Origin: Squalus acanthias | Taxonomy: Eukaryota | Reading direction: 5' to 3' | Assembly (NCBI GenBank): GCA_030390025.1 | Contig: JASTWF010000323.1 | Coordinates: 62,001-126,000, forward strand | DNA: 64,000 nucleotides | In this document: piece by piece, positions 2,845-60,842 of the stretch | Layout: every line of letters begins with the position of its first letter | Position numbering within the stretch: the first letter of the stretch is position 1 | Made by a program: the position numbers and the translations under genes | Notes under the pieces: model-generated | What the model was told of the DNA's origin: nothing | Seen by the model: the letters and a program-made list of their open reading frames with translations, nothing else | Database searches by the model: none

Positions 2845-4080
2845 TGAGGGAGGAAGAGGGCGGAAAGAGAGAGAGGGAGAGAGAGAATGGGGGAGAGAGA
2901 GAGTGGCTAATAGAGAGAGAGAGTGGGTGAGAGATAGAGTCTGGGGGTAAGAGAGAGAGAGAGGGAGGGTGAGAGAAAGTGGGTGACAGAGATAGACTGG
3001 GATGAGCGCGAGTGGGCGAGAGAGATAGAGACTGGGGAGAGAGACAGTGGGTGAGAGAGAAAGACTGGGGGAGTGAGAAAAGAGTGGATGAGAGAGAGAG
3101 TGAGCGAGAGATTGGTTGAGAGAGTGGGTGAGATAGATTCTGGGGGAGAGAGAGAGAGGGGGAGAGAGAGGGGGAGAGAGAGACTGGGGCCAGAGAGAGA
3201 GATTGGCAGAGAGAGAATGGGCGAGAGAGTGTGGGTGAGAGAGAGACTGGGGGAGAGATAGAAAGACTGTGGGGTGAGAAAGAGAGATAGACTGAGAGAG
3301 AGAAAGGGGAGATTGAGAGAGTGGGGAGAGAGTGAGAGAGTAGGGTGAGAGAGAGAGACTGGGGGAGAGAGAGATAGACTGGGACAGAGAGCGAAGGCAA
3401 GAGAGACTGGGTTGAGAGTGAGACTTGGGGAGAGAGTGAGTGTGGTAGAGAGAGAATGGGGCAGAGAGAGGGACTGGTGTGTGTGAGAGAATGGTGGAGA
3501 GAGGGTTTACTGTGGAGAGAGATACAGAGGCTGGAGAGAGAGAGTCAAGGGAGATGAGACTAGGGGGAGCGAGAGAATGGTCAGAGAGAGCGAGCGACTG
3601 GTCAGAGAGTGAGCGAGAGAGATTGGAGAGAGAGACACTGGAGGAGAGACTTGGGAGAGAGAGACAGTGGGAGATACTTGGGAGAGAGAGAGACAGTGAG
3701 ACATACTTGGGAGAGAGATGGGGAGAGAGAGAGACTGGGGAGTGAGAGAGAGAGAGACTGGGGAGAGAAAGAGACTGGGAGAGAGGGAGAGATTGGGGGG
3801 GAGAGAGAAAGACTGGGGAGAGAGAGACTGGGAAGAGAGAGAGACTGGGGAGAGAGAGAGACTGGGGAGAGAGACTTAGTGAGAGGGAGAGAATCTGGGG
3901 AGAGAGACTGGGGCGAGAGGGAGAGAGACTCGGGAGAGAGACGAGGGTGAGAAGGAGAGAGACTCGGGAGAGATAGATAGACTGGAGCAGAGAAAGACTG
4001 GGGTGGAGAGAGACTGGAGAGAGAGGGAGAGAGACTGGAGAGAGAGGGAGAGAGACTGGGGAAGAGAGAGAGAGAGAATG
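2845..4080. repeat. GA-rich polypurine simple repeat with GAGAGACTGGG motif
   Basis: Degenerate (GA)n with recurrent gagagactgggg; produces the spurious Ser/Leu and Glu/Arg ORFs. Confidence 0.95.
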
Positions 4081-4469
4081 GGTAGAAATATTCCCTTTGC
4101 TTCGTACAATAGCGTTAAAACAATCTTTAACATCTACCGACAGTGCCTCATTTAAAAATATCTTCTAAAACCTGCAGGCAAGTTATCACTCAGGATTTCA
4201 ATGAGCTGGGACACGAAGGGCATTCAGTTCATTGTGAACAGATTAGTGGAGCTGGAGTCTGATGTGGGCACCTTCATTATCACAAGAGCACAAATAGGAA
4301 AACATTGTCATGAAAAGTTTCCATGGAAGAGGGAAACATTTCTGCTCATTTCACAGCATATACTGGATTTCAAATGTTTAAATAAAGAGAGGAAATCTCT
4401 CTCATGAACCGACACTGATTCTCTGCTGCTCCTTTTGCTTCGATGTTTTTTGTAGAGCGAGCCAGCAAA

Positions 4470-19200: not shown

Positions 19201-21000
19201 ACAATCCCAGCAGTGTGGTCGCCCATTTTTGTTTTTCAATTCGACCCATATGGCCTCGTCTCATGATCCCTCCAGCATATCATCCCTCCTCACAGCTGTA
19301 ATAATTTCTTTAATCAATTCCGCGACCCCGCCTCCCTTTTACCGCCCTCTCCATGCCGTCTGAAAATCCTGTAAACAGTAATGTTGAGCTGCCATTCCTG
19401 CCCCTCTTTCAGCCACGTGTCTGTAATAACTATAATATCATAGTCCCAAGTATCTACCTGTGCCCTCAGCTCATCTGCCTTGTTCGCTATACTCCTTGCA
19501 TGGAAGTATATATCATTTAGTACAGGCAAACCTTCTTGTTGACTACTATCTAGCCCTTGATTCCTCTGTCCTTCTAATTTAGTTTCTACCTTTTTGTTTT
19601 CCAATTCCAGTTTGTCTTCCCTCTCTATTGACTCAATAGTTAGGTTCCCATTCACCTGCAAAGCTAATTTAAACCCTCCCCAACAGCACTAGCAAACCAT
19701 CCCGCGAGGATATTGGTCCCGTTCCCGTTGAGGAGCAACCCGTCTGGCTTGTACAGGTTCCACATTCCCCATAAACGGTTCCAATTACACCGGAATCTAA
19801 AGCCCTCCTTCCTCCAACCTCTCTCCAGCCACGCATTCATCAGCTCTATTTTTCTATTTCTGAACTCAATAGCACGTGGCACTAGTAGTAATCCGGAGAT
19901 TACTACCTTTGAGGTCCTGCTTTTTAACCTCTTTCCTAGCTCCCTTAACCCTGCCTGCAGGACCTCATCCCTCTTCCTACATATGTAATTAGTACCGATA
20001 TGGACTACGACCTCTGGCTGTTCACCCTCCCCACTCAGAATGCCCTGCAGCTGCTCAGTGACATCCTTGACCCTGGAAACAGGGAGGCAACATAGCATCC
20101 TGGAGTCACGCCTGCGGCCGCAGAAACGCCTGTCTGCTCCCCTAACTATTGAATCCCCCATCACTATAGCTCTCCCTCTCCTCTTCCCCCCCCGCCTGTG
20201 CAGCTGAGCCTTCCATGGTGCTGTAGACTTGGCTCGGGCTGCACTCCCCGGAGGAACCATAGCCCTCACCAGTACTCAGCACCGAATACTGGTTGGTGAG
20301 CAAGATGGGCTCAGGGAACTCCTGCACTACCTGCCTGGTCCTCCTCTTCTGTCTGACGGTCACCTATTCTCTCTCTGCCTGCACACTCTTAAGCTGCGGG
20401 GTGACCAGCTCCCGAAACGTGCTATCGACGTAGCTCTCAGCCTCGCGGATGCACAGCAGTGACTGAAGCCGCCGCTCAAGCTCCGTAACCCGGTGCTCAA
20501 GCTGCTGCAGCTGGCGACACTTCCCGCACATGTGTTGGTCCAGACCACGGGAAGTGTCCAGGACTTCCCACATGGCAAAGGATGTGCTTTCCACGGGCGT
20601 GAGCTGCGCTGCCATACCTGTAATTAACCTCTAATTTAGTAAACTAGCTGGAATAAACATCAAAACTTTAAAAAAGCCAAGTATAAACCCTGACCAGATA
20701 CTCACCATTCAGTTCCCTTCCCTTGTGTCGACGTCACTTTTGACTTTTGACGTCACTCTTTGAAAATTGTGCCGCAGACTCGCTGCTCCTCCCAGGTCCG
20801 CACTGCCGCTGCTGCTGCTGTTGTGCGGCCTTCCTCCGCCTGGGGCTCATTTATACCGCCGCTGCCGCCTCGCCGCTCCTCCTCGGTTCGCTCTGCCGCC
20901 ACTGTTGCTGTTGCTGTGGAGCCTACCTGCGCCTGAGGCTCATTTTAAGCCGCTGCTGCCGCGTTGCCGCTCCTCCCAAGTCCGCACTGCCGCCGCTGCT
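16283..21000 (-). mobile_element. Full-length decayed CR1 LINE, copy A (5' UTR, ORF1 with Zn finger/coiled coil/SGNH esterase, ORF2 with APE+RT)
   Basis: ORF1 ATG at 20615, GDSIVR/HIGTN motifs, stop at 19664; ORF2 ARSIANK, GDFNYP, SDHN, YRPVCLTS, KFADD; tail gaatcata repeats at 16283; several frameshifts. Confidence 0.95.
18367..18686 (-). mobile_element. tRNA-derived V-SINE of HE1 type
   Basis: On -: A box ggtggcatagcggttag, B box ggttcgattcc, V domain gtggagtttgcacattctc..gcgtgggtttcctccggg..ccggtttcctcccacagtccaaaga, CR1-like tail gattctgt; inserted in ORF2 of copy A. Confidence 0.88.
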
Positions 21001-29000: not shown

Positions 29001-32000
29001 CCTACAAATACTGATTTCATTCAGTTCTTCCCTCTCATTAGAACCTATGTTCCCCGACATCTCTGGGATGTTATTTGTGTCCTCCTTTGTGAAGACAGAA
29101 CCAAAGTATGTATTTAATTGATTTGCCATTTCTTTGTTCCCCATTATAAATTCCCCTGATTCTGACTGCAAGGGACCTACGCTTGACATCACCAATCTTT
29201 TTCTCTTCACATATCTATAAAAGCAATAACAGTCAGTTTTTATGATCCCTGAAAGCTTACTCTCATACTCTATTTTCCCGCTCTTACTTAATCCCTTTGT
29301 CCTTCGTTGCTGAATCCTATACTGCTCCCAATCCTCAGGTTTTCTGTTTTTTCTGGCAAATGTATATGTCCTCTCCTTGGATCTTATGCTATCCCTAATT
29401 TCCTTTGGTAGCCACGGTCGAGTCACCTTTTTTGTTTTATTTTTATGACAAACTGGGATGAACAAATTCTGTTGTTCATTCTTGCGATCTTTGAATGTTT
29501 GCCATTGCCTATCCATCGTCAACCCTTTGAGTGACATTCCCCAGTCAATCCTACCCAACTCGCGCCTCATACCATCGTAGTTTCCTTTATTTAAATTCAG
29601 GACCCTTGTCTCCGAGTCCACTACTTCACTCTCCATCTTAATGAAGAGTTCTATTATATTATGATCGCTCCGACACAAGGGGCCTCGCACAACAAGATTG
29701 CTAATTAATCCTTTCTCATTGCATAATACCCAATCTAAAATGGCCTGATCTCTAGTTGGTTCCTCGACATATTGGTCCAGGAAACCATCCCGTAAACACT
29801 CCAGGAACTCCTCCTCCACAGTATTGTTACTAATTTGGTAAGCCCACTCTATATGTAGATTAAAGTCGCCCATGATAACTGCTGTGCTCTTATTGCACGC
29901 TTCTCTTATTTCCCTTTTAATGCCATCCCCAACCTCCGTATTACTGTTTGGGGGTCTATACACCACTCCCACTAGCGTTTTCTGCCCCTTGGTATTTCTC
30001 AGTTCTACGCATACAGATTCCACATCATCAGAGCTAATATCCTTCCTTACAATTGTGTTAATCCCCTCTTTAACCAGCAATGCTACCCCAGCTCATTTTC
30101 CTTTTTGCCTATCTTTCCTGAATATTGAATTGTTGAGTACCCAGCCTTTGTCACCGTGGAGCCATGTTTCCGTAATCCCAATCATATCATATTTGTTTAC
30201 CTCTATTTGCGCAGTTAATTCATCCAGTTTATGACGAATGCTCCTCGCATTAAGACACAAAGCCTTCAGGATTGTTTTTTTAACGCTCTTAGACATTTTA
30301 GAATTATTATTCACTGTGGCCACGTTTGATTTAAGTCCTTGATTTCTCTGACTGACACCTTTGTTTTTCTCCTTCCTGACATTTGCTTCTATCCTTGTTT
30401 CCCTTTCCTCTGTCTCCCTTCTCAGGTTCCCAACCCCCTGCAGTTTAGTTTGAACACTCCCCCAGAGCACTAGCAAACAGTCCCCCTCGGACATCGGACC
30501 CCGGCCCTGCCCAGGTGCAAACCGTCCGGATTGTACTGATCCCACCTCCCCCAGAGCCGGTTCCAATGTCCCGGGAATTTGAATCACTCCCCCTTGCATC
30601 ATTCCTCTAGCCACGTATTCATCTGAAATATCCTTCTATTTCTACTCTGACTAGCACGTGGCACTGGTAGGAATCCTGAGATTACTACCTTTGAGGTCCT
30701 TTTTTAAAATTTACCTCCTAACTCCCAATATTCAGCTTTTAGGACCTCATCCCTTTTTTTCCCTATATCGTTGGTACCTATATGCACCAGGACAACTGGC
30801 TGTTCACCCTCCCTTTCCAAAATGTTCTGCAGCATCTGTGAGACAACCTTGTCCCTTGCACCAGGAAGGCAACACACCATCCTGGAGTCTCGTTTGCCGC
30901 CGCAGAAACGCCTATCTATTCCCCTTACAATAGAATCCCCTATCACGATAGCTCGACACCTATTTTTCCTCCCGTCCTGTGCAGCAGAACCACCCCTGGT
31001 GCCAGGAAGTTGGCAGCTGCTGCCTTCCCCTGATAAGCCATCCCCCTCAACAGTATCCAAAGCAGTATATCTGTTTGAGATGGGAATGTCCACAGGGGAC
31101 TCCTGCACTACCTGCCTGCGCCTACTACTCTGCCTGGTGGTCACCCATTCCCTTTCTGCCTGTGCAACCTTTACCTGTGGTGTGACCAACTGGCTAAACG
31201 TGCTATCCACGAGGTCCTCAGCATCGCGAATGCTCCCGTATGTATCCATTCGCAGCTCTAGCGACACAATGCGGTCTGCCAGTACCTGCAGCTGGATACA
31301 CTTCCTGCACACATGGTCTTCAGGGACACAGGAAGTGTCCCCGATTTCCCACATAGCGCAGGAGGAGCATACCACGGTGACAGGCTGTGTTGCCATGACT
31401 GACCCTTTAATTAATTGAACTTAAATTAAATCAAATCTTTCCCACCAATTACCAACTTTCCCCGCTACACCACAGAGACCCTAGAAACTTTAAACCACAA
31501 AATTAAAGTTTGGAAAAAGGAGAAAAAGAGAAATACTGACCAACCAATCACTTACCTGCTTTCTGATGACGTCACACTTTGATTATTTTTTACTTCTCTC
31601 TCTCCCGCTCTCGGGGCTCAAATTGGTAAGCCTATTGGTCGCTGCCGCCTTTTATAGCCGCCGCCTCGCCGCTGTCGCTCCACCCATGTCCGCCGCCTCT
31701 GTGGGACTCGCTTGTCGCTGCTGCCTTTTATGGCCGCCGCCGCGCCGCTGTCGCTCCACTCAGGTCTTTTTCTCTTCACATATCTATAGAACATTTTACA
31801 GTCAGTTTTTATTTTCCCTGGAAGCTTACTCCCATATTCTATTTCCCCCCCTCTGAATTAATCCCTTTGAACTCCTTTGCTGAAACCTAAACTGCGCCCA
31901 ATCCTCAGGTTTGCAGCTTTTTCTGCACAAGTTATATGTCCTCTCCTTGAATCTTATGCTATCCCTAATTTCCCTTGTTAGCAACGTTTGAGTCACATTT

Positions 32001-33644
32001 TTTGTTTTATTTTTATACCATAGAGGGATGAACAAATTCTGTAGTTCATCCATGAGATCTTTAAATGTTTGCCATTGCCTATCCACCGTCAACCCTTTAA
32101 GTAACGCTCCCCAATCCACCCAAGCCAACTCGCGCCTGATACCATCGTAGTTTCCTTTATTTAAATTCAGGACCCTAGACTCTGAGTCAACTGCTTAACT
32201 CTCTATCTTAATGAAGAATTCTATCATATTATGAACGTTCCTCCCCAAGGGGCCTCGTACAACAAGATTGCTAATTAATCCTTTCTCATTACATAATACC
32301 CAGTCTAAGATGGCCTGAAATCTAGTTGGTTTCTCAACATATTGGTCCAGGAAACCATCCCGTATGCACTCTAGGAATTACTCCTCCACAGTATTTTTAC
32401 TAATTTGGTTAGCCCAATCTATATGTAGATTAAAGTCACCCATGATAACTGCTGTGCCCTTATTGCACGCATCTCTAATTTCCCATTTAATGACATCCCC
32501 AACCTCAGCATTACTGTTTGGGGGTATGTATACAACTCCCACTAACGTTTTCTGCCCCTTGGTATTTCTCAGCTCTACCCATACAGATTCCACATCATCA
32601 GAGCTAATATCCTTCTTACTATTGTGTTTATCTCCTCTTTAACCAGCAATGCTACCCCACCTCCTTTTCCTTTTTGTCTGTACTTCCTGAATATAGAATA
32701 CCCCTGGATGTTGAATTCCCAGCATTGGTCACCCTGGAGCCATGTCTCCGTAATCGTAATTATATAATTTCCATTTATATCTATTTGCGCAGCTAATTGA
32801 TCAATTTTATTACGAATGCTCCTCGCATTAAGACACAATGCGTTCAGGCTTGTTTTTTTTAACGCTCTTAGACCTTTTAGAATTATTAATTACTGTAGCC
32901 CTGTTTGATTTGCAACCTTGATTTCTCTGCGTTCCACTTTTGCTTTTCTCCTTCCTGTCTTTTGCTTCTATCCTTGCTTCCCTTTCCTCTGTTTCCCTGC
33001 ACAGGTTCCCAACCCGCTGCCATTTTAGTTTAAACCCTCCCCAACAGCACTCGCAAACACTCCCCCAATGACATCGGTCCCGGCCCTGCCTAGGTGCAAA
33101 CCGTCCAGTTTGTACTGGTGCCACCTCCCCCAAACCGGTTCCAATGTCCCAGGAATTTGAATCCCTCCCCTTTGCACCATTCCTCTAGCTACGTATTCAT
33201 CTGAAATATCCTTCTATTTCTACTCTGACTAGCACGTGGCACCGGTAGCAACCCTGAGATTGCTACCTTTGAGGTCCTATTGCTTAATTTACCTCCTAAC
33301 TCCCTATATTTAGTTTTTAGGACCTCATCCCGTTTTTTCCCTATATCGTTGGTACCTATATGCACCACGATAACAGGCTCTTCACTCTCCCCCTCCAGAA
33401 TGCCCTCCAGCGGCTCCGAGACATCCTTGACCCTTGCTCCAGGGAGGCAACATACCATCCTGGAGTCTCGTTTGCGGCCGCAGAAACGCCTAGCTATTCC
33501 CCTTGCAATTTAATCCCCTATCACTATAGCTCTCCCACTCTTTCTCCTCCCGTCCCGTGAAGCAGAACCACAAATGGTGCCAGGAAGTTGGTTTCTGCTG
33601 CCTTCCCCCGATAAGCCATCTCCCTCAACAATATCCAAAGTGGT
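26058..33644 (-). mobile_element. CR1 LINE copy C (esterase to RT, truncated at both ends), split by copy B
   Basis: ORFs at 33189 (HIGTND), 32575 (NARSIRNK), 26865 and 25985; host sequence gacttca|..|tctttttctcttcac rejoins across 27377-31764. Confidence 0.9.
27377..31764 (-). mobile_element. Full-length, lightly decayed CR1 LINE, copy B
   Basis: ORF1 ATG at 31396 (CSSC..HVCRKC, GDSIVR, HIGTND, DGLH); ORF2 in pieces 30093..30614, 28467..30080 (537 aa) and 27471..28466 (331 aa, KFADD); GC-rich 5' UTR; 3' tail at 27377. Confidence 0.96.
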
Positions 33645-33645
33645 C

Positions 33646-35808
33646 ATGAGCATGAAATTCCTGCACTAAGGCGGGAGCAGTGTAATCTAAGCCACCTTGT
33701 GAATTAAATTCCTGTTCTGAGGTGGTGCAGATTAAGCTAGACTGCGCAGGGAATGAAATTCCTGGATTGAAGTGGGAGCAGTGTAATCTAGGCAGCCTCG
33801 GTATAAGATTCCTGGACTGAGGGGAGAGCAGTGTAATCTAGGCGTGTCCTAGGAATGATATTCCAGTAGTGAGACGGAGGCATTGTAACGTATTCAGTGT
33901 TGGAAATTAAATTCCTGATCTGTGGCGGGAGCAGTGTAATCTAGGCGTGTCCTCGGAATGACATTTCTGTCGTGAGACTGGGGCAGTGTAACGTATTCAG
34001 TCTTGGGAATTAAATTCCTGGACTGTGGCGGGAGCAGTGTATTCGACGCAGCCCTGGGAATAAAATGCCTTGAATGAAGTGGGACCAGTGTAAACTAGGC
34101 TGCCCTGGGAATTATATTCCTCGACTGAGGCGGCAGCAGTTTAATCCTAGCGGTCCTGAGGAAATAAATCCTGGATTTAGCCGAGAGCAGTGTAATCCAG
34201 GCGGTCCTGAGAATGAAATTCCTGGACTGAGCCGGGAGCAGTATAATCTAGGCGATCCTGAGAATGAAAGTCATGGACTGAGGCGGGAGCAGCGTAATCT
34301 ATGCGGATCTGGGAATGAAAGTCATGGACTGAGGTGGGAGCAGCGTCATCTATGCGGCCTCGGAATGCCATTCCTGGACTGTGGCGGGAGCCGTGTTATC
34401 TAATCGACCTGGGAATGAAATTCCTGGACTGAGGCAGGAGCAGTGTAATCCAGCCGGTCCTGGTAATGAATTTCCAGGACTGCGGTGGGAGCAGTGTAAT
34501 CTAGGCGGATCTGGGAATGAAATTCCTTAACTGAGGAGGGAGCAGTGTAATCTAGGCCCCCCGGGAATGACATTTCTGGACTAAGGCGGGAGCCGTGTTC
34601 TCTAGTCCGATTGGGAATGAAATTTCTGCACTGACGCGGGAGCAGTGTAATCTAGGCGGCCGTGTGAATGCAATTCCTGGACTGAAGCGATAGCCGGGTA
34701 ATCTAGGCCGCCCTGGGAATTAAATTCCTCAACTGAGGCGGGAGCAGTGCATTCTAGGCAGCCTGGGAATAAATTTCCAGGACTGAGGCAGAAGCACTCA
34801 AATCGAGGCGGCCTCGGAATGACATTTCTTGACTGAAGTGGGAGCCGTGCAAACTGGGCTGCCTGGGAATTATATTTCTGGACTGCGGCGGGCACAGTGT
34901 AATCTAGGTGGCCCTGGTAATCAAATTCCTCGACTCAGGCGGGAAAAGATTAAACTGGGCGACCTGGCAATTACATTCCTGAACTGAGACGGGAGCACCT
35001 TAATCGAGCCGGCGCATTGAATGACATTCCTGGACTAAGGTGGCAGTACTGAAACGAAGACGGTGCTGGGAATGAAATTCCTGGACTGAAACGGGAGCAG
35101 TGAAACTAAGCAGCCTGTGAATTAAACTCCTAGACAGAGGCAGGATTAGAGTAATCTAGGTGGCCCTACGAATAATATTCCTGTACTGAGGCGGGAAGAG
35201 AGTAATATAGGCGGCCCTGGGAAGGACATTTCAGTACTGAGGCAGGATCAGTGTAATTTAGGCGGCCTGGGAATTACATTCCTCAACTGAAGAGGGGGCA
35301 GTGTAATCTAGGCGGCCTGGGAATGAAATGCCTGTACTGAGGCTGGAGCAGTTTAGTATAGGCGGCCCTGGGAAATAAATTCCCGGAATGAGGCGGAAGC
35401 AGTGTCATCTAGGCAATCCGAGGAATGAAATCTCAACGACTGAGGCGGGTGCAATGTAAACTCGGCTGCCCTGGGAATGATATTCCTGTACTGAGGTGGG
35501 AGCCATGTAATCGAGGCGGTCCTGAGAATGAAATTCACGGAATTAACCGAGAGCAGTGTAATCCAGCCTGTCCTGAGAATGAAATTCCTGTGCTAAAGCT
35601 GGAGCTGTGTAACGTCGGCAGACTTGAAATCAAGTTCCTGGATTGAGGCGGAAGCAGTGTAATCTAGGCGGCCCTGGCAATGAAATTCCTGTCTTGAGGC
35701 GGGAGCAGTGTAATCCAGACGACCCTCTGAATTACATTTCGAGATTTCGGCAGGAGCAGCATAATCTAGGGTGTCCAGGGAATGAAATTCTCTAGATTGA
35801 GGCGGTCT
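33646..35808. repeat. Tandem satellite, 50-51 bp unit, roughly 42 copies
   Basis: Consensus gggaatgaaattcctggactgaggcgggagcagtgtaatctaggcggccct; gaatgaaa at 34211, 34262 and 34313. Confidence 0.95.
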
Positions 35809-37303
35809 CGGTGACATGTAGGCCTGTCACATCTTCCCATCACTGGGATTATCTCAAGTTCCTGCCATTTAGGAATATTTATCTTTTGTGAATATTTTTA
35901 TCCTAATGGTCTGGGATGGAATGAACCATAGAACAAGATTGTGGCAATGCATCTTTTTTCTTATTGTATTCCTTCCTTTTTACAGTAACGATCTAGTCTT
36001 TTGTTAACACTTTTAGTTCAATGCAGGAAGATAAATTCCGTTCGCTCTGATCTGTCCACGGTATTTTAAGAGCATGTGAAATATCCGCTAATCATTCAGT
36101 TCCCTTCAGTATCTCCTTTCTCACCAACTTCACTTCTGCATTAGTGGCACTGCTTCTGATGGGATGAACAGGATAACAAGTATAATTCACATTCTCACAA
36201 AATATCTATTTAGCCTGAATTCAATGCATTTATTTCCAATCTTTGTTTTGAATTTACTATTGGATCCCATGCCACTGGCACAGTTTAGTGTATCTCTCAT
36301 TGAGACCGAGAGTGATTCTCCACTGCCTCCTGCTGTACTTCAGGATAAACAATCCCAGCTGATTGCAATTGAAGTACTGAGGATAAGAAAATCCTTGCAT
36401 ATTTTCTCGTCTAATAATCTCTGCACACGTTGGAAACCAACAGGTGAAAAAGTACAAGGATAAATCTCTTCCATTTGTGTTCAGATACTTCAGAAAAGCA
36501 TTCGACGGCACTTTGCCTGTGGAATAATTCGTCTGATTTCGATGCTAACAAATGCATTTAGTGGGACATTACCTGGTCAATAATTATTTTAATTTATTGT
36601 CTATTCTTTTCAATGTTATTTTGAAAATCCTCCTTTCAATGAGATAGAATTAGTGTATTTCAACAATAATGCAGAAAACTCAATCTTGAAAACACTCTTA
36701 CAGCCCAGTTATCTTTATAACTGCAGAGCAATTTTACTTATTTTCTTAGCATTGTCATATTACATCCGTACATTTTAAATACAATTGCCTGTAATTATTG
36801 CACGCCAAGTTTGCAGTTTCTGTATTTTGCTGCTGCATTCATTTTCAGCTCTAAATAAAAATGAATATTCTAACCAGGAGCAGGAATCCAAGCGGGATTT
36901 CCCCCTCCCTACCACAGGGGCACAAAAGCGAATTACACCGCTCCAAATGCTCACTGATCCTGGGACATGAAGGCTTCCTGACAGGTCCTGCTCCTTTGTG
37001 TCACTGGTACCCCGGGAAGTGCTTTTGTCTGCTGGGCTAAACATAGATCGATCATTTAATCTCTCATTGATCAAACATCTATTACTTCCATGTTGTAATT
37101 ATCCCCAATTCTTTTATTAATTCTATAATATATTCCCGATTATTCTTACAGTAAACCCGGTATTCATCTCCACAGGTAATATAATTAGATTATATCATTT
37201 AATGTCGCTAATGAGTTGCAGATTTCACCCCAAAATCCATCAAACTGCTGCTTTTGAACCCAGCCTGATGTATAATTTCGCTGTTTATTTCCCTTCTTTA
37301 CAG

Positions 37304-39012: not shown

Positions 39013-41540
39013 GTGAACAAATCCCATTACAGTGTCCCATCAAACAGTCCCAGTGCGGGTACAGCTCTAGTTTATTATAGAGGAAAGCTCACTCTACACT
39101 GTCCAATCAAACACTCCCAAGACGGGTACTGCATGCATAAAATACATTGTTACCTTCCCCATAAAAATGCATATCAAGCACTCCCAGAACATCACCGGCT
39201 AGGTACAGAGTGAATCTCAATCTACACTGTCACATAAAACACTCCCAGGGTCAGCTAAAGCATGTGGTGAGACAGAGATTAAAGTAAACTCTATGATCTT
39301 ATTGAATGACGGAGTGGGCTCGAGGGGCACAATGGCCTACTCCTGCTCTTATTTTTTATGTTCTTATGTTCTCTACACTGCCCCATCATACAATACCAAG
39401 AGAGGTAGAGCACTGGTTAGATGCAGAGTAAATCTCACTGTACACTGTCCAAACTAAAACATCCCATGCAGGCAGAGCTTGGGTTAGATACAGAGCAAAG
39501 CAGTGTATATACTGCCGCATCAGTTACACCCAGGGCAGGTACGGCAAGGTTTAGATACAGAGTAAAGCTGCCACTACAGTGTCCCTACAAACAATCACAG
39601 GAAATTTACAGCATGGGTTAGATAAAAGGTAAAACTCCCTCTACACTGCCCCATCAATCACTCCTGGGACAGACACAGCACGGCTGGATACAATGTAAAG
39701 CTCCCTCTGCACTATCCCATCAAACACCCCCAGGGCAGGTACAGCACGTGTTTGTATAGTGTAAAGCACCCTCTACACTGTCCCATCAAACATTCTGAGG
39801 GCAGGTTAAGCATGGGTACGATACCGAGTAAATCTCCCTCCACACTGTCTCATCAAACAATCCCAGGGCAGGAATAGCAAAGGTTAAATATAGAGTAAAC
39901 ACCCCTCTACAATGTCGGATCAAACACTCCCAGGGCAGGTACAGCTCGGTTTACAAAGAGTCTAAAGCTCACGCTACACATGTCCGATCCAACACTCCAA
40001 GTGAAGGTACAGCACGGATTAGATACAGAGTAAAGCCCCCTCTACAATTTCCCTTCAAATAGTCCCAGGGCAGGTGAAGCACAGGTTAAATACAGTGTAA
40101 AGCTCCCTCTACACTCTCCCATCAATAATTCCAGGGCAGGTGGAGCACTTGTTAGATATAGAGTAAATCTATCTCTAAATGTCACATCAAAAAATTGCAG
40201 GGCAGATAGAGCACGGGATAGATACAGAATAAAGCTCTCACTACACTGCCGCATCAAACACTCCCAGGGCAGTTGTAGCATGGGTTAGCTACAGCGTAAA
40301 GCTCCCTCTAAACTGTCAAAGGAAACGCTTCCAGGGCAGGTACAGCACGGATAGATACAGACCAAAGCTTCCTCTATACTGCCCAATCAAACAATCCCAG
40401 GGCAGGTGCAGCATAAGTTAGATACAGAGTAAAGCTCCAACAACACTGCACCATCAAAAACTCCCAGGGCAGTTGCAGTGGTTAGATTATCTAATGACCA
40501 TCAATATAAGATAGTCACTAATAAATCCAATAAGGTATTCAGGAGAAACATCTTCATACAGAGACGGTGTAGAACGTGCAACTAGTTACTACATGGATTA
40601 GTTGAGGCGAAGAGCACAGATGCATTTTAGGGGAGGGTCGATAATTACAGGAGAGAGAAAGAAATAGAAGGAAGTTATAGAGCAAAGCTCACTCTACACT
40701 GTCCTAGCAAACACTCCCAGGGCAGGTATAACACGGGTGAGGTACAGAGTAAAGCACCCTCTACGCTGTCCCATTAAACATTCACAGAACAGGTACACCA
40801 CGGATTAGATACAGAATAAAGCTCCCTCTACACTGTACAATCGAACACTCCCAGGGCATGTATAGCACGGGTTAGATACAGAATAAAGCTCCCTCTACAC
40901 TGTCCCATCAATCACTCCCAGGGCTGGTTTAGAACAGGTTAAATGCAAAGTAAAGCCCCGTCTACACTGTTCCATCAAACACTCCCAGGACAGCTGCAGA
41001 TGTTAGATTGTTGTATAATCATCAATATAAAATAGTCAGTAATAAATCCAAGAAGGAATTCAGGAGAAACATCGTCATCCAGAACCTTGGCAGAATATGG
41101 AACTAGTTACCACGTGGATTAGTTGAGGTGAATAACATAGATGGATTTTAGGGGAGCTCGATAATTACATGAGGGAGAGAGGATTAGAAGGAAGTTATAG
41201 AGGAAAGATCACTCTACACTGTCCCGTCAAATACGCCTGGAGCTGGTACCGCACAGGAGAGATATCGTGTAAAGCTCCCTCTACACTGCCCCATCAAACA
41301 CTCCCAGGGCAGTAGAAGCATGGGTTAGCTACAAAGTAAAACACCCTCTACACTTTCCCATGAAACACTCCCAGGGCAGCTGCAGGGGGTAGATTGTTAA
41401 ATGCTCATCGAAATAAGAAAATCACGAATAAATTCAGTAAGGAATTCAGGAGCAACATCTTCGTCAGATACTAGATAGAATGTGGAACTAGTTACTACAT
41501 GGATTAGTTGAGGCAAAAAGCATAAATGCATTTTAGGGGA

Positions 41541-48547: not shown

Positions 48548-50200
48548 CCCAACATCTCTGAGAGTTTATCTGTGTCCTGCTTTGTGAGACAGAACCAAAG
48601 TATGTATTTAATTGGACTGCAATTTCTTTGTTCCCCATTATAAATTTCCCTGATTCTCACTGCAAGGGACCTATATTTGACTTCACCAATCTTTTTCTCT
48701 TCACATATCGATAGAAGCGTTTACAGTCAGTTTTTATGTTCCTTTAAAGCTTACTCTCATATTCTATTTTCCCCCTCTTAATTAATCCATTTGTCCTCCT
48801 TTGCTGAATCCTAAACCTATTCCAATACTCAGGTTTGCTGCTTTTTCGGGCCAATGTAAATGTCCTCTCCTTGGATCTTATGCTATCCCTAATTTCCCTT
48901 GTTAGCCACGATTGAGTCACATTTTTTGTTTTATTTGTATGCCATACAGGGATGATCAAATTCTACAGTTCATCCATGCGATCTTTAAATGTTTGCCGTT
49001 GCCTATCTTTAACTCACATTCCCCAATACATCCTAGCCAACTCGCGCGTCGTACCATCGAAGTTTCCTTTAATTAAATTCAGGACTCTAGTCTCTGAGTC
49101 AACTACTTCACTCTCCATCTCCAAGAATTCTATCATATTATGATCGCTCCTCCCCAAGGGCCCTCGCACAACAAGATTGCTAATTACTCCTTTCTCATTA
49201 CATAATACCCAGTCTAAGATGGGCTGATCTCCAGTTGGTTCCTCGACATATTGGTCCAGCAAACCATCCCGTATACACTCTAGGAATTCCTACTCCACAG
49301 TATTGTTACTAATTTGGTTAGTCCAATGTATATGTAGATTAAAGTCACCCACGATAACTGCAGTGCCCTTATTGAACGCGTCTCTAATTTCCCGTTTTAT
49401 GCCATCCCCAAACTCAGCATTACTGTTTGGGGGTCTGTATGCAACTCCCACTAACGTTTTCTGCCCATTGGTATTTCTCAGCTCTAACCATACAGATGCC
49501 ACATCATCAGAGCTAATATCGTTCCTTACTGTTGTGTTAATCTCCTCTTTAAACAGGAATGCTACCCCACCTCCTTTTCCTTTTTGTCTGTCCATCCAGA
49601 ATATTGAATACCCTTGGACGTTGAATTTCCAGCCTTGGTCAAACTGTAGCCATGTCTCCGTAATCCCAATTATATGATATCTGTTTACATCTATTTGCGC
49701 AGCTAATTCATCCACCTTATTATGAATGTTCCTCGCATTAAGACACAAAGCCTTCAGGCTTTTTTTTAACACTCTTAGTCCTTTTAGAATTATTATTTAC
49801 TGCAGCCCTGTTTGATTTATACCCTTGATTTCTCTGCCTTCCACTTTTGCTTTTCTCCTTCCTGTCTTTTGCTTCTATCCTTGCTTCCCTTTCCTCTGTT
49901 TCCCTGCACAGGTTCCCAACCCGCTGCCATTTTAGTTTAAACCCTCCCCAACAGCACTAGTAAACACACCCCCTAGGACATCGGTCCCGGTCCTGCCCAC
50001 GTACAAGACGTCCAGTTTGTACTGTTCCCACCTCCCCCAGAACTGGTTCTAATGTCCCAGGAATTTGAAGCCCTCCCCCTTGCACCATTCCTCTAGCCAC
50101 GTATTTATCTGAAATATCCTAATATTTCTACTCTCACTAGCACGTGGCACCGGTAGCAAACCTGAGATTACTTCCTTTGAGGTCCTGTTTTTTTAATTTA

Positions 50201-57251: not shown

Positions 57252-59160
57252 CGAACATACGAACAAGGAGCAGGAGTAGGCCACTCGGCCCTTCGAGACT
57301 GCTCCGCCATTCAATAAGATCATGGCTGAGCTGATTACTCCACATTCCCGCCTACCCCCGATAACTTTTAACCCCCTTGCTAACCAAGAATCTATCCACC
57401 TCTGCCTTAAAAATATTCAAAGAATCTACTTCCCCCGCCCTCTGAGGAAGAGAGCTCCAAAGATTCACGACCCTATGTGAGATAAAATTTCTCCTCATCT
57501 CTGTATTAAATGGGCGACCCCTTATTTTTAAACAGCGACCCCTAGTTCTAGATTCTCCCACAAGAGTAAACATCCTCTCCAGATCAACTCTGTCCAGACC
57601 CCTCAGGATCTTATATGTTTCAATTAAGTCACCTCTTATTCGTCTAAACTCCAGCGGAAAACAGCCTGTCCAACCTGTCCTCATAAGACTATCTAACCAT
57701 TCCAGGTATTAGTCTAGTAAACTTCTCTGAACTGCCTCCAACGGATTTACATCCTTCCTTAAATAAGGTTACCAATACTGTACACAGTACTCTAGATGTG
57801 GTCTCACCAATGCCCTGTACAACTGAAGTATAACCTCCCTACCTTTGTATTCAATTCCCCTCGCAATAAACGATAACATTCTATTAGCTTTCCATTTACT
57901 TGCTGTACCTGCATAGTAACCTTTTGTGATTCATGCACTAGGACACCCAGATCCCTCTGCATCTCAGAGCTCTGTAATCTCTCAGCATTTAGATTATATA
58001 ATTCTTTTTTACTCGTCCTGCCAAATTGGACAACTTCACATTTCCGCACATTATACTCCATCTGACAGATCTTTGCGCACTCACTTAACTTATCTATATC
58101 CCTTTGTAGCCTCCATATGTCCTCTTAACAATTTACTTTCCTACCTATCTTTATGTCATCAACAAATTTAGCAACCGTACCTTTGGTCCCTTCATTCAAG
58201 TCATTTATATAAATTGTATAATTTTTCTCTCCTTATTAATCTTTTAGTCACTCTTTGCTGTTTTTTATATTCTGTGCAATCTTCTGACATGCCACCCATC
58301 TTTGTGCAATTATATGCTTTTTCTTTAAGTTTAATACTATCTTTAACTTTTTAAGTTAACCACGGATAGTGGTCCTCCCCTTGGAATTTTCCTTTCTTGT
58401 TGGAATGTATATATTCTGTGTATTTTGAAATATACCCTTAAATGTCTGCCACTGCAACTCTATTGACCTACCCCTTAACGTAATTTGCCAGTTCACATTA
58501 GCTAGCTCTGCTTTCATACCCTCCTAATTGCCCTTAATTAAGTTCAAAATACCAGTCTTGGAACCACTCTTCTCTCTCTCAAACTGAATATTAAATTCAA
58601 TCATATTATGATCTCTGCTACCTCGGGGCGCCTTCACTATGAGGTCATTAATCCTATCTTGTTCCACAATACCAGGTCTAGTATAGCCTGCTCTCTGGTC
58701 GGCTCCAGAACGTGCTGTTGTAAAAAATTATCCCGAAAGCATTCCATGAATTCCTCATCTATGCTACCTTTGCCCAACTGATTTTTCCAGTCTATATGCA
58801 GATAAAATCCCCCCATGACTATTTCCGTACCATTCTGACAAGCACCCATTCTTTCTTCCTTTATACACCATCCTACCATGTGGTTACTGTTACGGGGCCT
58901 GTACGCAACTCCCACAAGTGACTCCTTGCCATTATTATTTCTCATCGCTACCCAAACCGCTTCTACATCCTGGTTTCCTGAACTTAGGTCATCCCTCTCT
59001 ATTGTGCTAATACCATCATTAATTAACAGAGCCAACGCTCCACCTTTTCCCACCTTCCTGTCCTTCCTAAATTTCATGCACCCTTCAATATTCTGTTCCC
59101 AATCTATGTCATCCTGCAGTCATGTTTCTGTAATGGCGATCAGATCATATTTATGTATTT
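57252..59160 (-). mobile_element. CR1 with an internal deletion (EN/linker joined to the RT end at ~58220)
   Basis: ORFs at 58637 (VAYRPRNS..AILDLVL), 57804 and 57352; tail cgaacatacgaac. Confidence 0.88.
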
Positions 59161-59162
59161 CT

Positions 59163-60842
59163 AAAGCACCCTCTACCCTGTCCCATCAAACACTCCCAGG
59201 GCAGGTTCACATAGGTGCAGATACAGAGTAAAGTTCCCAAAGCATTGTCCGAACAAACATTTCCAGGGCACGTACAGCACGGTATCGATACAGAGTAAAG
59301 CTTCCCTCTGCATTGTTCCAAAAAACACTCCCAGGGCAGGTAAAGCACTTTTCAGATACAGAGTAAAGCTCCCTCGACACTGTCCAAACAAACACTTCTA
59401 GGGCAGGTACAGCACTTTTCAGATACAGAGTAAAGCTCCCTCGACACTGTCCAAACAAACACTTCCAGGGCAGGTACAGCACGGGTTTGATGCAGAGTAA
59501 AGCTCCCTCCAAACTGTCCCAATAAACACCCCCAGGGTAGGTACAGCACGGGTTAGATACAGAGTAATGCTCCCTCTACACTGTCCCATCAAACACCCCC
59601 AATGCAGATACAGTACGGGTTAGATACAGAATAAAGCTCCTTCTACACTAACCCATCAAACACTCCCAGGGAATGTACAGCACGGGTTAGATATAGAGTA
59701 AAGCTCCCTCTATTTGTCCCATCAAACACTCCCTGGGCCAATACAGCACGGGTTAGATACAGAGTAAAGTTCCCTCTCCACTGTCCCAACAAACATTCCC
59801 AAGGCAGGTGCAGTACGCGTTAGATACAGAGTAACGCTCCCTCGACACTGTCCCATCAAACACTCCCTGGGCCAATACAGCACGGGTTAGATACAGAGTA
59901 AAGTTCCCTCTCCACTGTTCCAACAAACATTCCCAAGGCAGGTGCAGCACGGGTTAAATACAGAGCAAAGCTTCACTCTTCGTTGTCCCAAAAACACTCA
60001 CAGGGCAGCTACAGAAGGGGTTTGATATAGTGTAAAGTCCCTTTAGACTGTCTGATCAAATACTCTCAGGGCAGGTACAGCAGGGGTTAGATAGAGAGTA
60101 AAACTCCCTCTACACTGTCCCATCAAACACTCCCAGGGCAGGTACAGCACGGGTAAGATACAGAGTAAAGCTGCCTCTACACTTTCCCATAAACACTCCC
60201 AGGGCAGGTACAGCACGGGTTAGATACAGAGTAAAGATCCGTCTTCACTGTCCCATTAAACACTCCCAGGACATGTACAGCACGGGTTAGATACAGAGTA
60301 AAGCTCCCTCTACAAAGACCCATATAGCTCTCCCAGGGCAGGTACAGCATGGGTTAGATACAGAGTAAACCTTCCTCTACAAAGACCCATAAAACACTCC
60401 CAGAGCAGGTACAGCATGGTTTAGATACAACGTAAAGCTTCCTGTACACTGTCGCTTCAAACAGTTCCAGCGCAAGTACAGCACGGTTTTGATACAGAGT
60501 AAAGCTCCCTCTACACTGTCCAATCAAACACTCCCATGGATTGTACAGCAAGGTTTACATATAGGGTAAATCTTCCTCTACACTGTCCCAACAAACACAA
60601 AATTGAGAGGTCGCACAACACCAGGTTATAGTCCAACAGTTTTATTTGAAATCACAAGCTTTCGGAGCTATCAAATAAAACTGTTGGACTATAACCTGGT
60701 GGTGTGCGACCTCTCAATTTTGTCCACCCCAGTCCAACACCGGCATCTCCGCATCATGACCAACAAACACACCCAGGGCAGGTACAGCAGGGGTTTAATA
60801 CAGAGTAAAGCTCCCTCTTGACTGATCCATCTAACACTTCAG
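59163..60842 (+). repeat. 67-bp satellite array
   Basis: Direct match to the consensus. Confidence 0.95.
60599..60759. mobile_element. Palindromic, probably Penelope-derived insertion with an 11-bp TSD
   Basis: 53-bp arms 60597-60649 and 60671-60723 with 1 mismatch; ccaacaaacac at 60588-60598 and 60760-60770. Confidence 0.75.

Follow-up and report, generated by a model that had tools for sequence, protein, structure and literature searches.

How ORF2 is translated from the bicistronic RNA of a LINE has been settled for few elements, mainly as reinitiation. One of the closest described cases is that of the Dictyostelium elements TRE5-A and TRE3-A, for which −1 frameshifting is given as a requirement for ORF2 translation in the part of PMC5911963 that deals with them. 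Like the CR1 elements analysed here, these are APE-type non-LTR retrotransposons with a −1 reading, but they belong to another clade, live in another host and have an unrelated ORF1. For Paramecium non-LTR consensuses, the relevant section of PMC5405496 invokes +1 frameshifting or reinitiation (groups 1 and 2) and readthrough (group 3) for ORF2; these elements differ from CR1 in relying on a +1 shift or readthrough rather than on a −1 shift and in belonging to a distinct clade, and the Paramecium case is, like ours, built on sequence only. SART1 and mammalian L1 likewise have a bicistronic LINE RNA on which ORF2 is reached at the ORF1 stop: as set out in the passages of PMC3708506 and PMC5009743 concerned with each, SART1 uses UAAUG plus a downstream structure, and L1 ORF2 is held to depend on AUG-independent initiation and not on frameshifting. 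Outside the LINEs, the U_UUA_AAC cassette of infectious bronchitis virus, as outlined in PMC5009743, has the same heptamer as the junction described below and an overlapping, AUG-less −1 polymerase frame. The mechanism class is known and has already been stated for Dictyostelium LINEs, and the CR1 case extends it and founds no new kind.

CR1 is the dominant retrotransposon in most vertebrates, according to a 2026 survey (PMC13343379). The CR1-clade elements with an esterase ORF1, among which the consensus library of that survey has the family SquAca_CR1-1, are like the elements studied here in having an SGNH-esterase ORF1 followed by an AP endonuclease and a reverse transcriptase. In its main text the terms frameshift, overlap, translation, start codon and slippery are all absent, and ORF2 expression is unaddressed there. 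Our literature search, in which older subscription literature was thinly covered, returned no paper stating −1 frameshifting for CR1; the 1997 papers that first described full-length CR1 elements of chicken and turtle may discuss the overlap.

The window, by which we mean the whole stretch of 64,000 nt that was analysed, is repeat-rich DNA of a cartilaginous fish as judged by its closest protein homologues. ORF1 of CR1 ends at four places in it, each time on the minus strand: 19664 (copy A), 30445 (copy B), 33025 (copy C) and 49932 (copy D). Copies B, C and D constitute a single family, being 86–88% alike, copy A comes from a different CR1 family, and every one of the four is decayed. The architecture of ORF1 is a coiled coil plus an SGNH esterase; the latter matches Pfam PF13472 at E 0.0006–0.001 (below the curated cut-off), and the same domain is present in close ORF1 homologues from sharks and rays. 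ORF2 of copy B contains an endonuclease (PF14529) and a reverse transcriptase (PF00078), both above cut-off, and a comparison by eye shows that in B, C and D the linker and the beginning of the endonuclease match the first 400 letters of SquAca_CR1-1. Judged by their domains and by this by-eye match, which place them in the CR1 clade, the copies are ordinary CR1 LINEs. A full-length copy B (window 31760–27380) is inserted in the ORF2 of copy C, which breaks at 31765 and resumes at ~27376. Long minisatellite arrays lie at window 33640–35820, 39030–40490, 59160–60600 and 2860–4090, with units of ~51, 67, 67 and variable length, respectively.

The features of the four junctions are as follows.

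33025..33644, minus strand: SGNH-esterase domain of ORF1, copy C, 5′-truncated; it also has a stop codon and lacks 1 nt near 33132
33028..33034, minus strand: slippery heptamer U UUA AAC, copy C, where the last ORF1 codons are Gly-Leu-Asn
33025..33027, minus strand: ORF1 stop TAA, copy C, adjoining the heptamer on its 3′ side
32861..33034, minus strand: start of ORF2 in the −1 frame, copy C, reading FKLKWQ... with a linker of ~58 codons and no ATG
32853..32860, minus strand: A-run, copy C, 8 A; the contig-supported family form has one base fewer
31765..32852, minus strand: endonuclease and following ORF2, copy C, decayed and interrupted at 31765 by copy B
49932..49941, minus strand: heptamer and stop, copy D, within a 120-nt block identical to C
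30445..30454, minus strand: copy B junction T TCA AAC TAA, 1 nt short 3′ of the stop, with a 7-A run and the endonuclease in +1
19664..19673, minus strand: copy A junction T TTA AAT TAG, from which ORF2 stays open in −1 into the endonuclease and has no ATG on the way

The initial annotation had read GAG GGT TTA AAC TAA at the end of ORF1 as a −1 frameshift site, and we found this sequence on the minus strand at 33039–33025 in C and 49946–49932 in D. In the upstream frame, the X XXY YYZ heptamer is U UUA AAC in C, D and L001 (an intact element outside the window), U UUA AAU in A, and mutated in B. Counted over both strands, the window has 6145 stop triplets; a canonical heptamer precedes 40 of them (0.65%) by chance, compared to three of the four ORF1 stops. 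The spacer in copy C is 7 nt long (33027–33021), as had been stated, and the −1 frame of C and D is indeed open and free of ATG from the heptamer to the A-run, with frames 0 and +1 stopped before the endonuclease. In A, B and D the −1 frame is closed by a stop only a few codons before the heptamer, so the overlap of ORF2 with ORF1 is limited to ~8 codons. The ATG that follows the stop in C and D (33023) is in frame +1, which closes after 45 codons, short of the endonuclease, and it was rejected as an ORF2 start. The caveats that accompanied the proposal were confirmed as well: in copy B the heptamer has become T TCA AAC and 1 nt is missing downstream of the stop, and within the window continuity of the −1 frame into the endonuclease is directly seen in copy A only.

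The frame that holds the endonuclease differs among the copies of the window, being −1 in A, +1 in B and 0 in C and D, where the domain lies 198 and 195 nt from the stop. Taken from the window alone, the agreement of C and D on frame 0 resembles the outcome that the initial annotation had named as speaking against frameshifting, namely a family consensus with the endonuclease in frame 0 or +1, and outside data were therefore brought in. We aligned 13653, 10048 and 3610 contigs from the public runs X1, X5 and X8, along with 12 raw reads from X21, to 32720–33220. The sole indel listed there is one base absent from the A-run, in 79, 69 and 31 contigs, respectively; in X1, clipping at the A-run affects another 57 contigs. 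The 1-nt deletion accounts for 5%, 29% and 22% of the depth of X1, X5 and X8 and for 2 of the 6 raw reads of X21; the low share probably reflects clipping of short contigs, since the private deletion of C near 33132 is likewise unlisted as a gap, and these figures give no share for the 8-A form. Among the long records that cross the A-run, the shortfall relative to C is 1 nt in two, 2 nt in another two and 15 nt in one; record 12 of X5 (depth 220), which spans 33023–32815, is one base shorter than C, and this places its endonuclease in −1. The published consensus SquAca_CR1-1 has 7 A in the A-run, as in copy B, and a G at 33016; the published consensus rows omit variable columns and were left out of the frame assignment.

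L001 has a 304-codon ORF1 that ends T TTA AAC TAG, and its ORF2 runs in −1 through FKL, the linker and the endonuclease, with the first Met lying after the first endonuclease motif. Two stingray RefSeq entries, XP_059830283.1 and XP_059824367.1 (P0228 and P0229), which are gene models seen as protein only, contain esterase, GFKL, linker and endonuclease as a single chain. Because the A-run deletion in the contigs, L001 and the two stingray models agree, we read the family frame as −1, copy C having gained one base and D having lost two (or the form of C having lost three); the outside data put the endonuclease in −1 and not in 0 or +1. That ORF2 in the −1 frame lacks a start codon of its own is seen directly in A and L001, and for the B/C/D family through the contigs plus the published consensus. 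We also weighed, and dismissed, a further −1 slip on the A AAA AAC in the A-run of copy C: it predicts +1, whereas the endonuclease of C is in frame 0.

Conservation of the heptamer can be followed in proteins and in nucleotide consensuses. A set of 253 proteins yielded 137 distinct ones with the terminal esterase motif, 94 of which end in Leu-Asn and 10 in Gln-Gly-Asn, while 7 have Lys-Asn in that position followed by a tail and 26 end otherwise. Leu-Asn, Gln-Gly-Asn and Lys-Asn are what U UUA AAC, G GGA AAC and A AAA AAC, respectively, would leave in the protein (the last two as read from protein alone), and these are three of the four heptamers given in PMC5009743 as most shift-prone for mammalian ribosomes, U_UUA_AAC and G_GGA_AAC among them. 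Leu-Asn endings occur in named homologues from sharks, rays, frogs, turtles and a lizard, among others, and in one sturgeon record flagged as unverified. The residue before Leu-Asn is codable by NNT in 92 of the 94, while one position further upstream 50 of 94 are not; counting distinct residues, which is fairer as the sequences are related, 13 of 14 are NNT-codable (p 0.014). The supplement of PMC13343379 was matched by motif over, apparently, the first 400 letters of each row. Seventeen of its 23 matches of TTTAAACTA are ORF1 ends, and these belong to sharks, rays, chimaera, coelacanth, bowfin, frog and crocodilians. When the search was made with an upstream motif instead, TTTAAACTA was present in all eight CR1 rows with a visible ORF1 end, a ninth row ending too early. 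In the depth of X1, X5 and X8, heptamer positions are absent among the 40 best-supported of 77 variable places. Taken together, these observations indicate that the heptamer is conserved beyond what the protein needs. With the outside data on the frame, they give the slippery heptamer and its −1 arrangement firmer support than the window does by itself.

The same conservation could be ascribed to the protein: with no recoding, Leu-Asn would be kept for the esterase fold, and ORF2p would arise from a spliced or internally started RNA or from a non-AUG start in the linker. Leu-Asn does most often lie 25–26 residues past DGLHL (56 of 70 homologues), as would be expected of a structural terminus, but the distance ranges overall from 22 to 39 residues, 26 of the 137 esterase LINE ORF1s end otherwise, and the Leu codon is TTA in all eight consensus ends found without conditioning on the heptamer. 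Protein constraint explains neither the preceding T nor the fixed −1 overlap, and we regard this explanation as very improbable.

Two observations on the homologue set lie apart from this argument. P0247 and its relatives P0248–P0251, P0167 and P0185 form a distant esterase ORF1 group ending in ...RYLN, and P0247 carries an SH3-like domain (PF00018, PF14604) ahead of the esterase. P0017 and P0062 are CR1 ORF1 proteins whose records name Pseudomonas aeruginosa and a flatworm parasite of Xenopus as the source, which probably reflects contamination with host DNA.

Our preferred reading, to which we give a probability of about 0.7, is that the CR1 junction uses −1 frameshifting to produce an ORF1–ORF2 fusion. 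Most ribosomes reaching U UUA AAC and the immediate stop would terminate and release ORF1p. From the observed heptamer, stop, AUG-less −1 overlap and conservation we infer that a minority would slip back one base on the heptamer, bypass the stop and go on to make a fusion of ORF1p, linker, endonuclease and reverse transcriptase. A high ORF1p:ORF2p ratio would then be set by the slippage, as in gag-pol, and the candidate stimulator is a G-rich tract 10 nt downstream, possibly assisted by a slow stop codon. The predicted product is an esterase–endonuclease–reverse transcriptase fusion. A conserved −1 site in CR1 would provide a short, testable cassette in a dominant vertebrate group, and the annotation of intact CR1 elements would change, ORF2 having no start codon.

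The position of the stop, which directly adjoins the heptamer in every junction examined, would also suit termination–reinitiation, in which ribosomes reinitiate near the ORF1 stop in −1, either at an AUG (UAAUG) or without one, to give free ORF2p, with the heptamer aiding re-seating. SART1 and L1 offer a precedent for each variant, and TAATG with the ATG in the ORF2 frame occurs in 3 of 17 published junctions (ScyCan_CR1-1a, SquAca_CR1-17a and SquAca_CR1-6c). However, there is no AUG at the junction in the other 14 published rows, in copies A–D or in L001, the ATG at 33023 in C and D being in the closed +1 frame. Reinitiation predicts neither the X XXY YYZ pattern nor the switch of ending from xLN to QGN, and the B/C/D family differs from SART1 and L1 in having no UAAUG and in having a slippery heptamer that those models do not need. 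We consider it the main rival, though an unlikely explanation. The families ScyCan_CR1-1a, SquAca_CR1-17a and SquAca_CR1-6c possess the heptamer in addition to an overlapping TAATG, and both expression routes may coexist in them.

Retroviral and coronaviral −1 cassettes carry a strong conserved stem-loop or pseudoknot 5–9 nt downstream. In contrast to these viral cassettes, we found no conserved RNA structure at the CR1 junction, where a G tract at 10 nt is kept instead. The initial annotation had proposed a hairpin as the stimulator.

32999..33020, minus strand: proposed 9-bp hairpin, in a form peculiar to C and D, assessed by folding and by family depth

The stem (33020–32999) folds as described, with 9 bp, one bulge, a GGG loop and an energy of −9.3 kcal/mol. 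It is weak and not clearly better than shuffled sequences, with z of −1.38 over 68 nt (20 of 200 shuffles as good), −1.81 over 33 nt (13 of 200) and −2.0 with 300 shuffles. The C at 33016 is G in at least 99.4% of family depth in the three runs, where 40 of 77 variable places were inspected. Position 33001 is T or A, about half each, in family depth, with no compensating change at its pairing partner among those 40 places. Stem pairs are retained at 6 of 9 in B and 3 of 9 in A, the L001 junction is without structure (−2.5 kcal/mol), and the 3′ arm differs among the sawfish, stingray and crocodilian consensuses. As a stimulator the 9-bp hairpin is not supported, given that one of its pairs depends on a base peculiar to C and D (below 1% of family depth) and that the stem is only partly kept in B and A and absent from L001; it is probably a by-product of a private substitution.

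With T at 33001, the family-majority sequence forms another hairpin, which keeps the 7-nt spacing and shares the three outermost pairs; its energy is −10.0 kcal/mol (z −3.0 with 300 shuffles, pair probabilities of at least 0.97). With A at 33001 the sequence folds at −6.5 kcal/mol (z −1.0). A family-specific structure may exist, and the weak family hairpin may add to stimulation. An explanation in which the −1 shift is driven by a hairpin at this distance, be it the stem of C and D or the re-paired one of the family, has the canonical spacing and the fold of the T-33001 form on its side. In the catshark consensus ScyCan_CR1-14, moreover, a stem of 5 bp with one changed pair can be read by eye at the matching inner register. 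We nevertheless judge it quite unlikely, as the C–G pair requires the rare base at 33016, about half of the family depth breaks the A–U pair uncompensated, and the pairing is lost or variable in the other copies, L001 and the consensuses.

The heptamer and hairpin had been described as identical in copy D. C and D are indeed identical over 120 nt (33051–32932; ~49958–49839 in D) and 87–88% alike on either side, and the chance of such an identical 120-nt run is ~7e-5. The block carries two rare shared variants, the base at 33016 included, and 22 of the 25 listed private bases of C are not in D. The block could be due to gene conversion, to a small sub-lineage or to an artefact of the assembly. 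Because the two sequences are not independent there, copy D is no second witness, and the identity stands without lending independent support.

Downstream of the heptamer, the feature that appears better kept than the hairpin is the G-rich tract.

33008..33017, minus strand: G-rich tract starting 10 nt after the heptamer, family form G5-TT-G3, with a C at 33016 in C and D

G5-N2-G3 begins seven bases after the stop. By eye, 6 of the 17 published rows have it at exactly this position, two of them from alligator and one each from crocodile, chimaera, sawfish and catshark; most of the remaining published rows have a G run nearby, and at least two are without one. The tract is present in contigs of the B/C/D family, and the G5 run also in L001, although the linker that surrounds it in these elements is otherwise divergent. 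No G-quadruplex is predicted at the tract. Long-range pairing of the tract with the bodies of A and B was rejected, at −19.2 to −21.9 kcal/mol versus shuffled means of −18.9 to −20.3 kcal/mol. We put the G-rich tract forward as a candidate conserved stimulator, as a lead only, and the frameshift may accordingly have a stimulator other than an RNA fold. Its 10-nt spacing recalls protein-stimulated frameshifting by PCBP–nsp1β. PCBP–nsp1β is named as a case of protein-stimulated frameshifting in the corresponding passage of PMC5009743.

Searches in other directions gave little. The linker alone returned no match in a protein search (14 candidates, weak evidence); in viral contigs, none of 85 candidate stretches was confirmed as CR1, with one weak hit, and none of 13 pattern matches hit CR1 proteins; plasmids gave no match. 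Seven prokaryotic genome loci, from bacterial or metagenome assemblies, were left out.

A scan of metagenomes covered 53 loci, 28 of which have the terminal motif and a stop (counted with L054–L060, one of which is among the 28), and L001 is the only vertebrate-like one among them. The ORF1 stop is TGA-C in 20 of the 28, often as TGA CTA or TGA CCA. The endonuclease is reached without a further stop in 18 loci, in frame 0 in 17 and in −1 in L001 alone; many invertebrate linkers contain Met, and the loci are related to each other. TGA-C followed by a same-frame ORF2 is a candidate for stop-codon readthrough, which would be a separate route to a fusion, and the invertebrate loci point indirectly to fusion as a general aim of esterase LINEs. 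A broader account would combine these elements: the fusion made by −1 frameshifting would have been kept from sharks to crocodilians, the G tract, by binding a protein or the ribosome and not by folding, would stimulate it, and invertebrate esterase LINEs would use UGA-C readthrough. We offer this account tentatively, as a possibility more likely to fail in some part than to hold throughout. If it is true, esterase LINEs would follow the gag-pol logic in both of its retroviral forms.

The TGA-C loci with ORF2 in the same frame include L002, L005, L006, L007, L012, L013, L015 and L018, as well as L020, L040, L042, L043, L044, L046 and L052.
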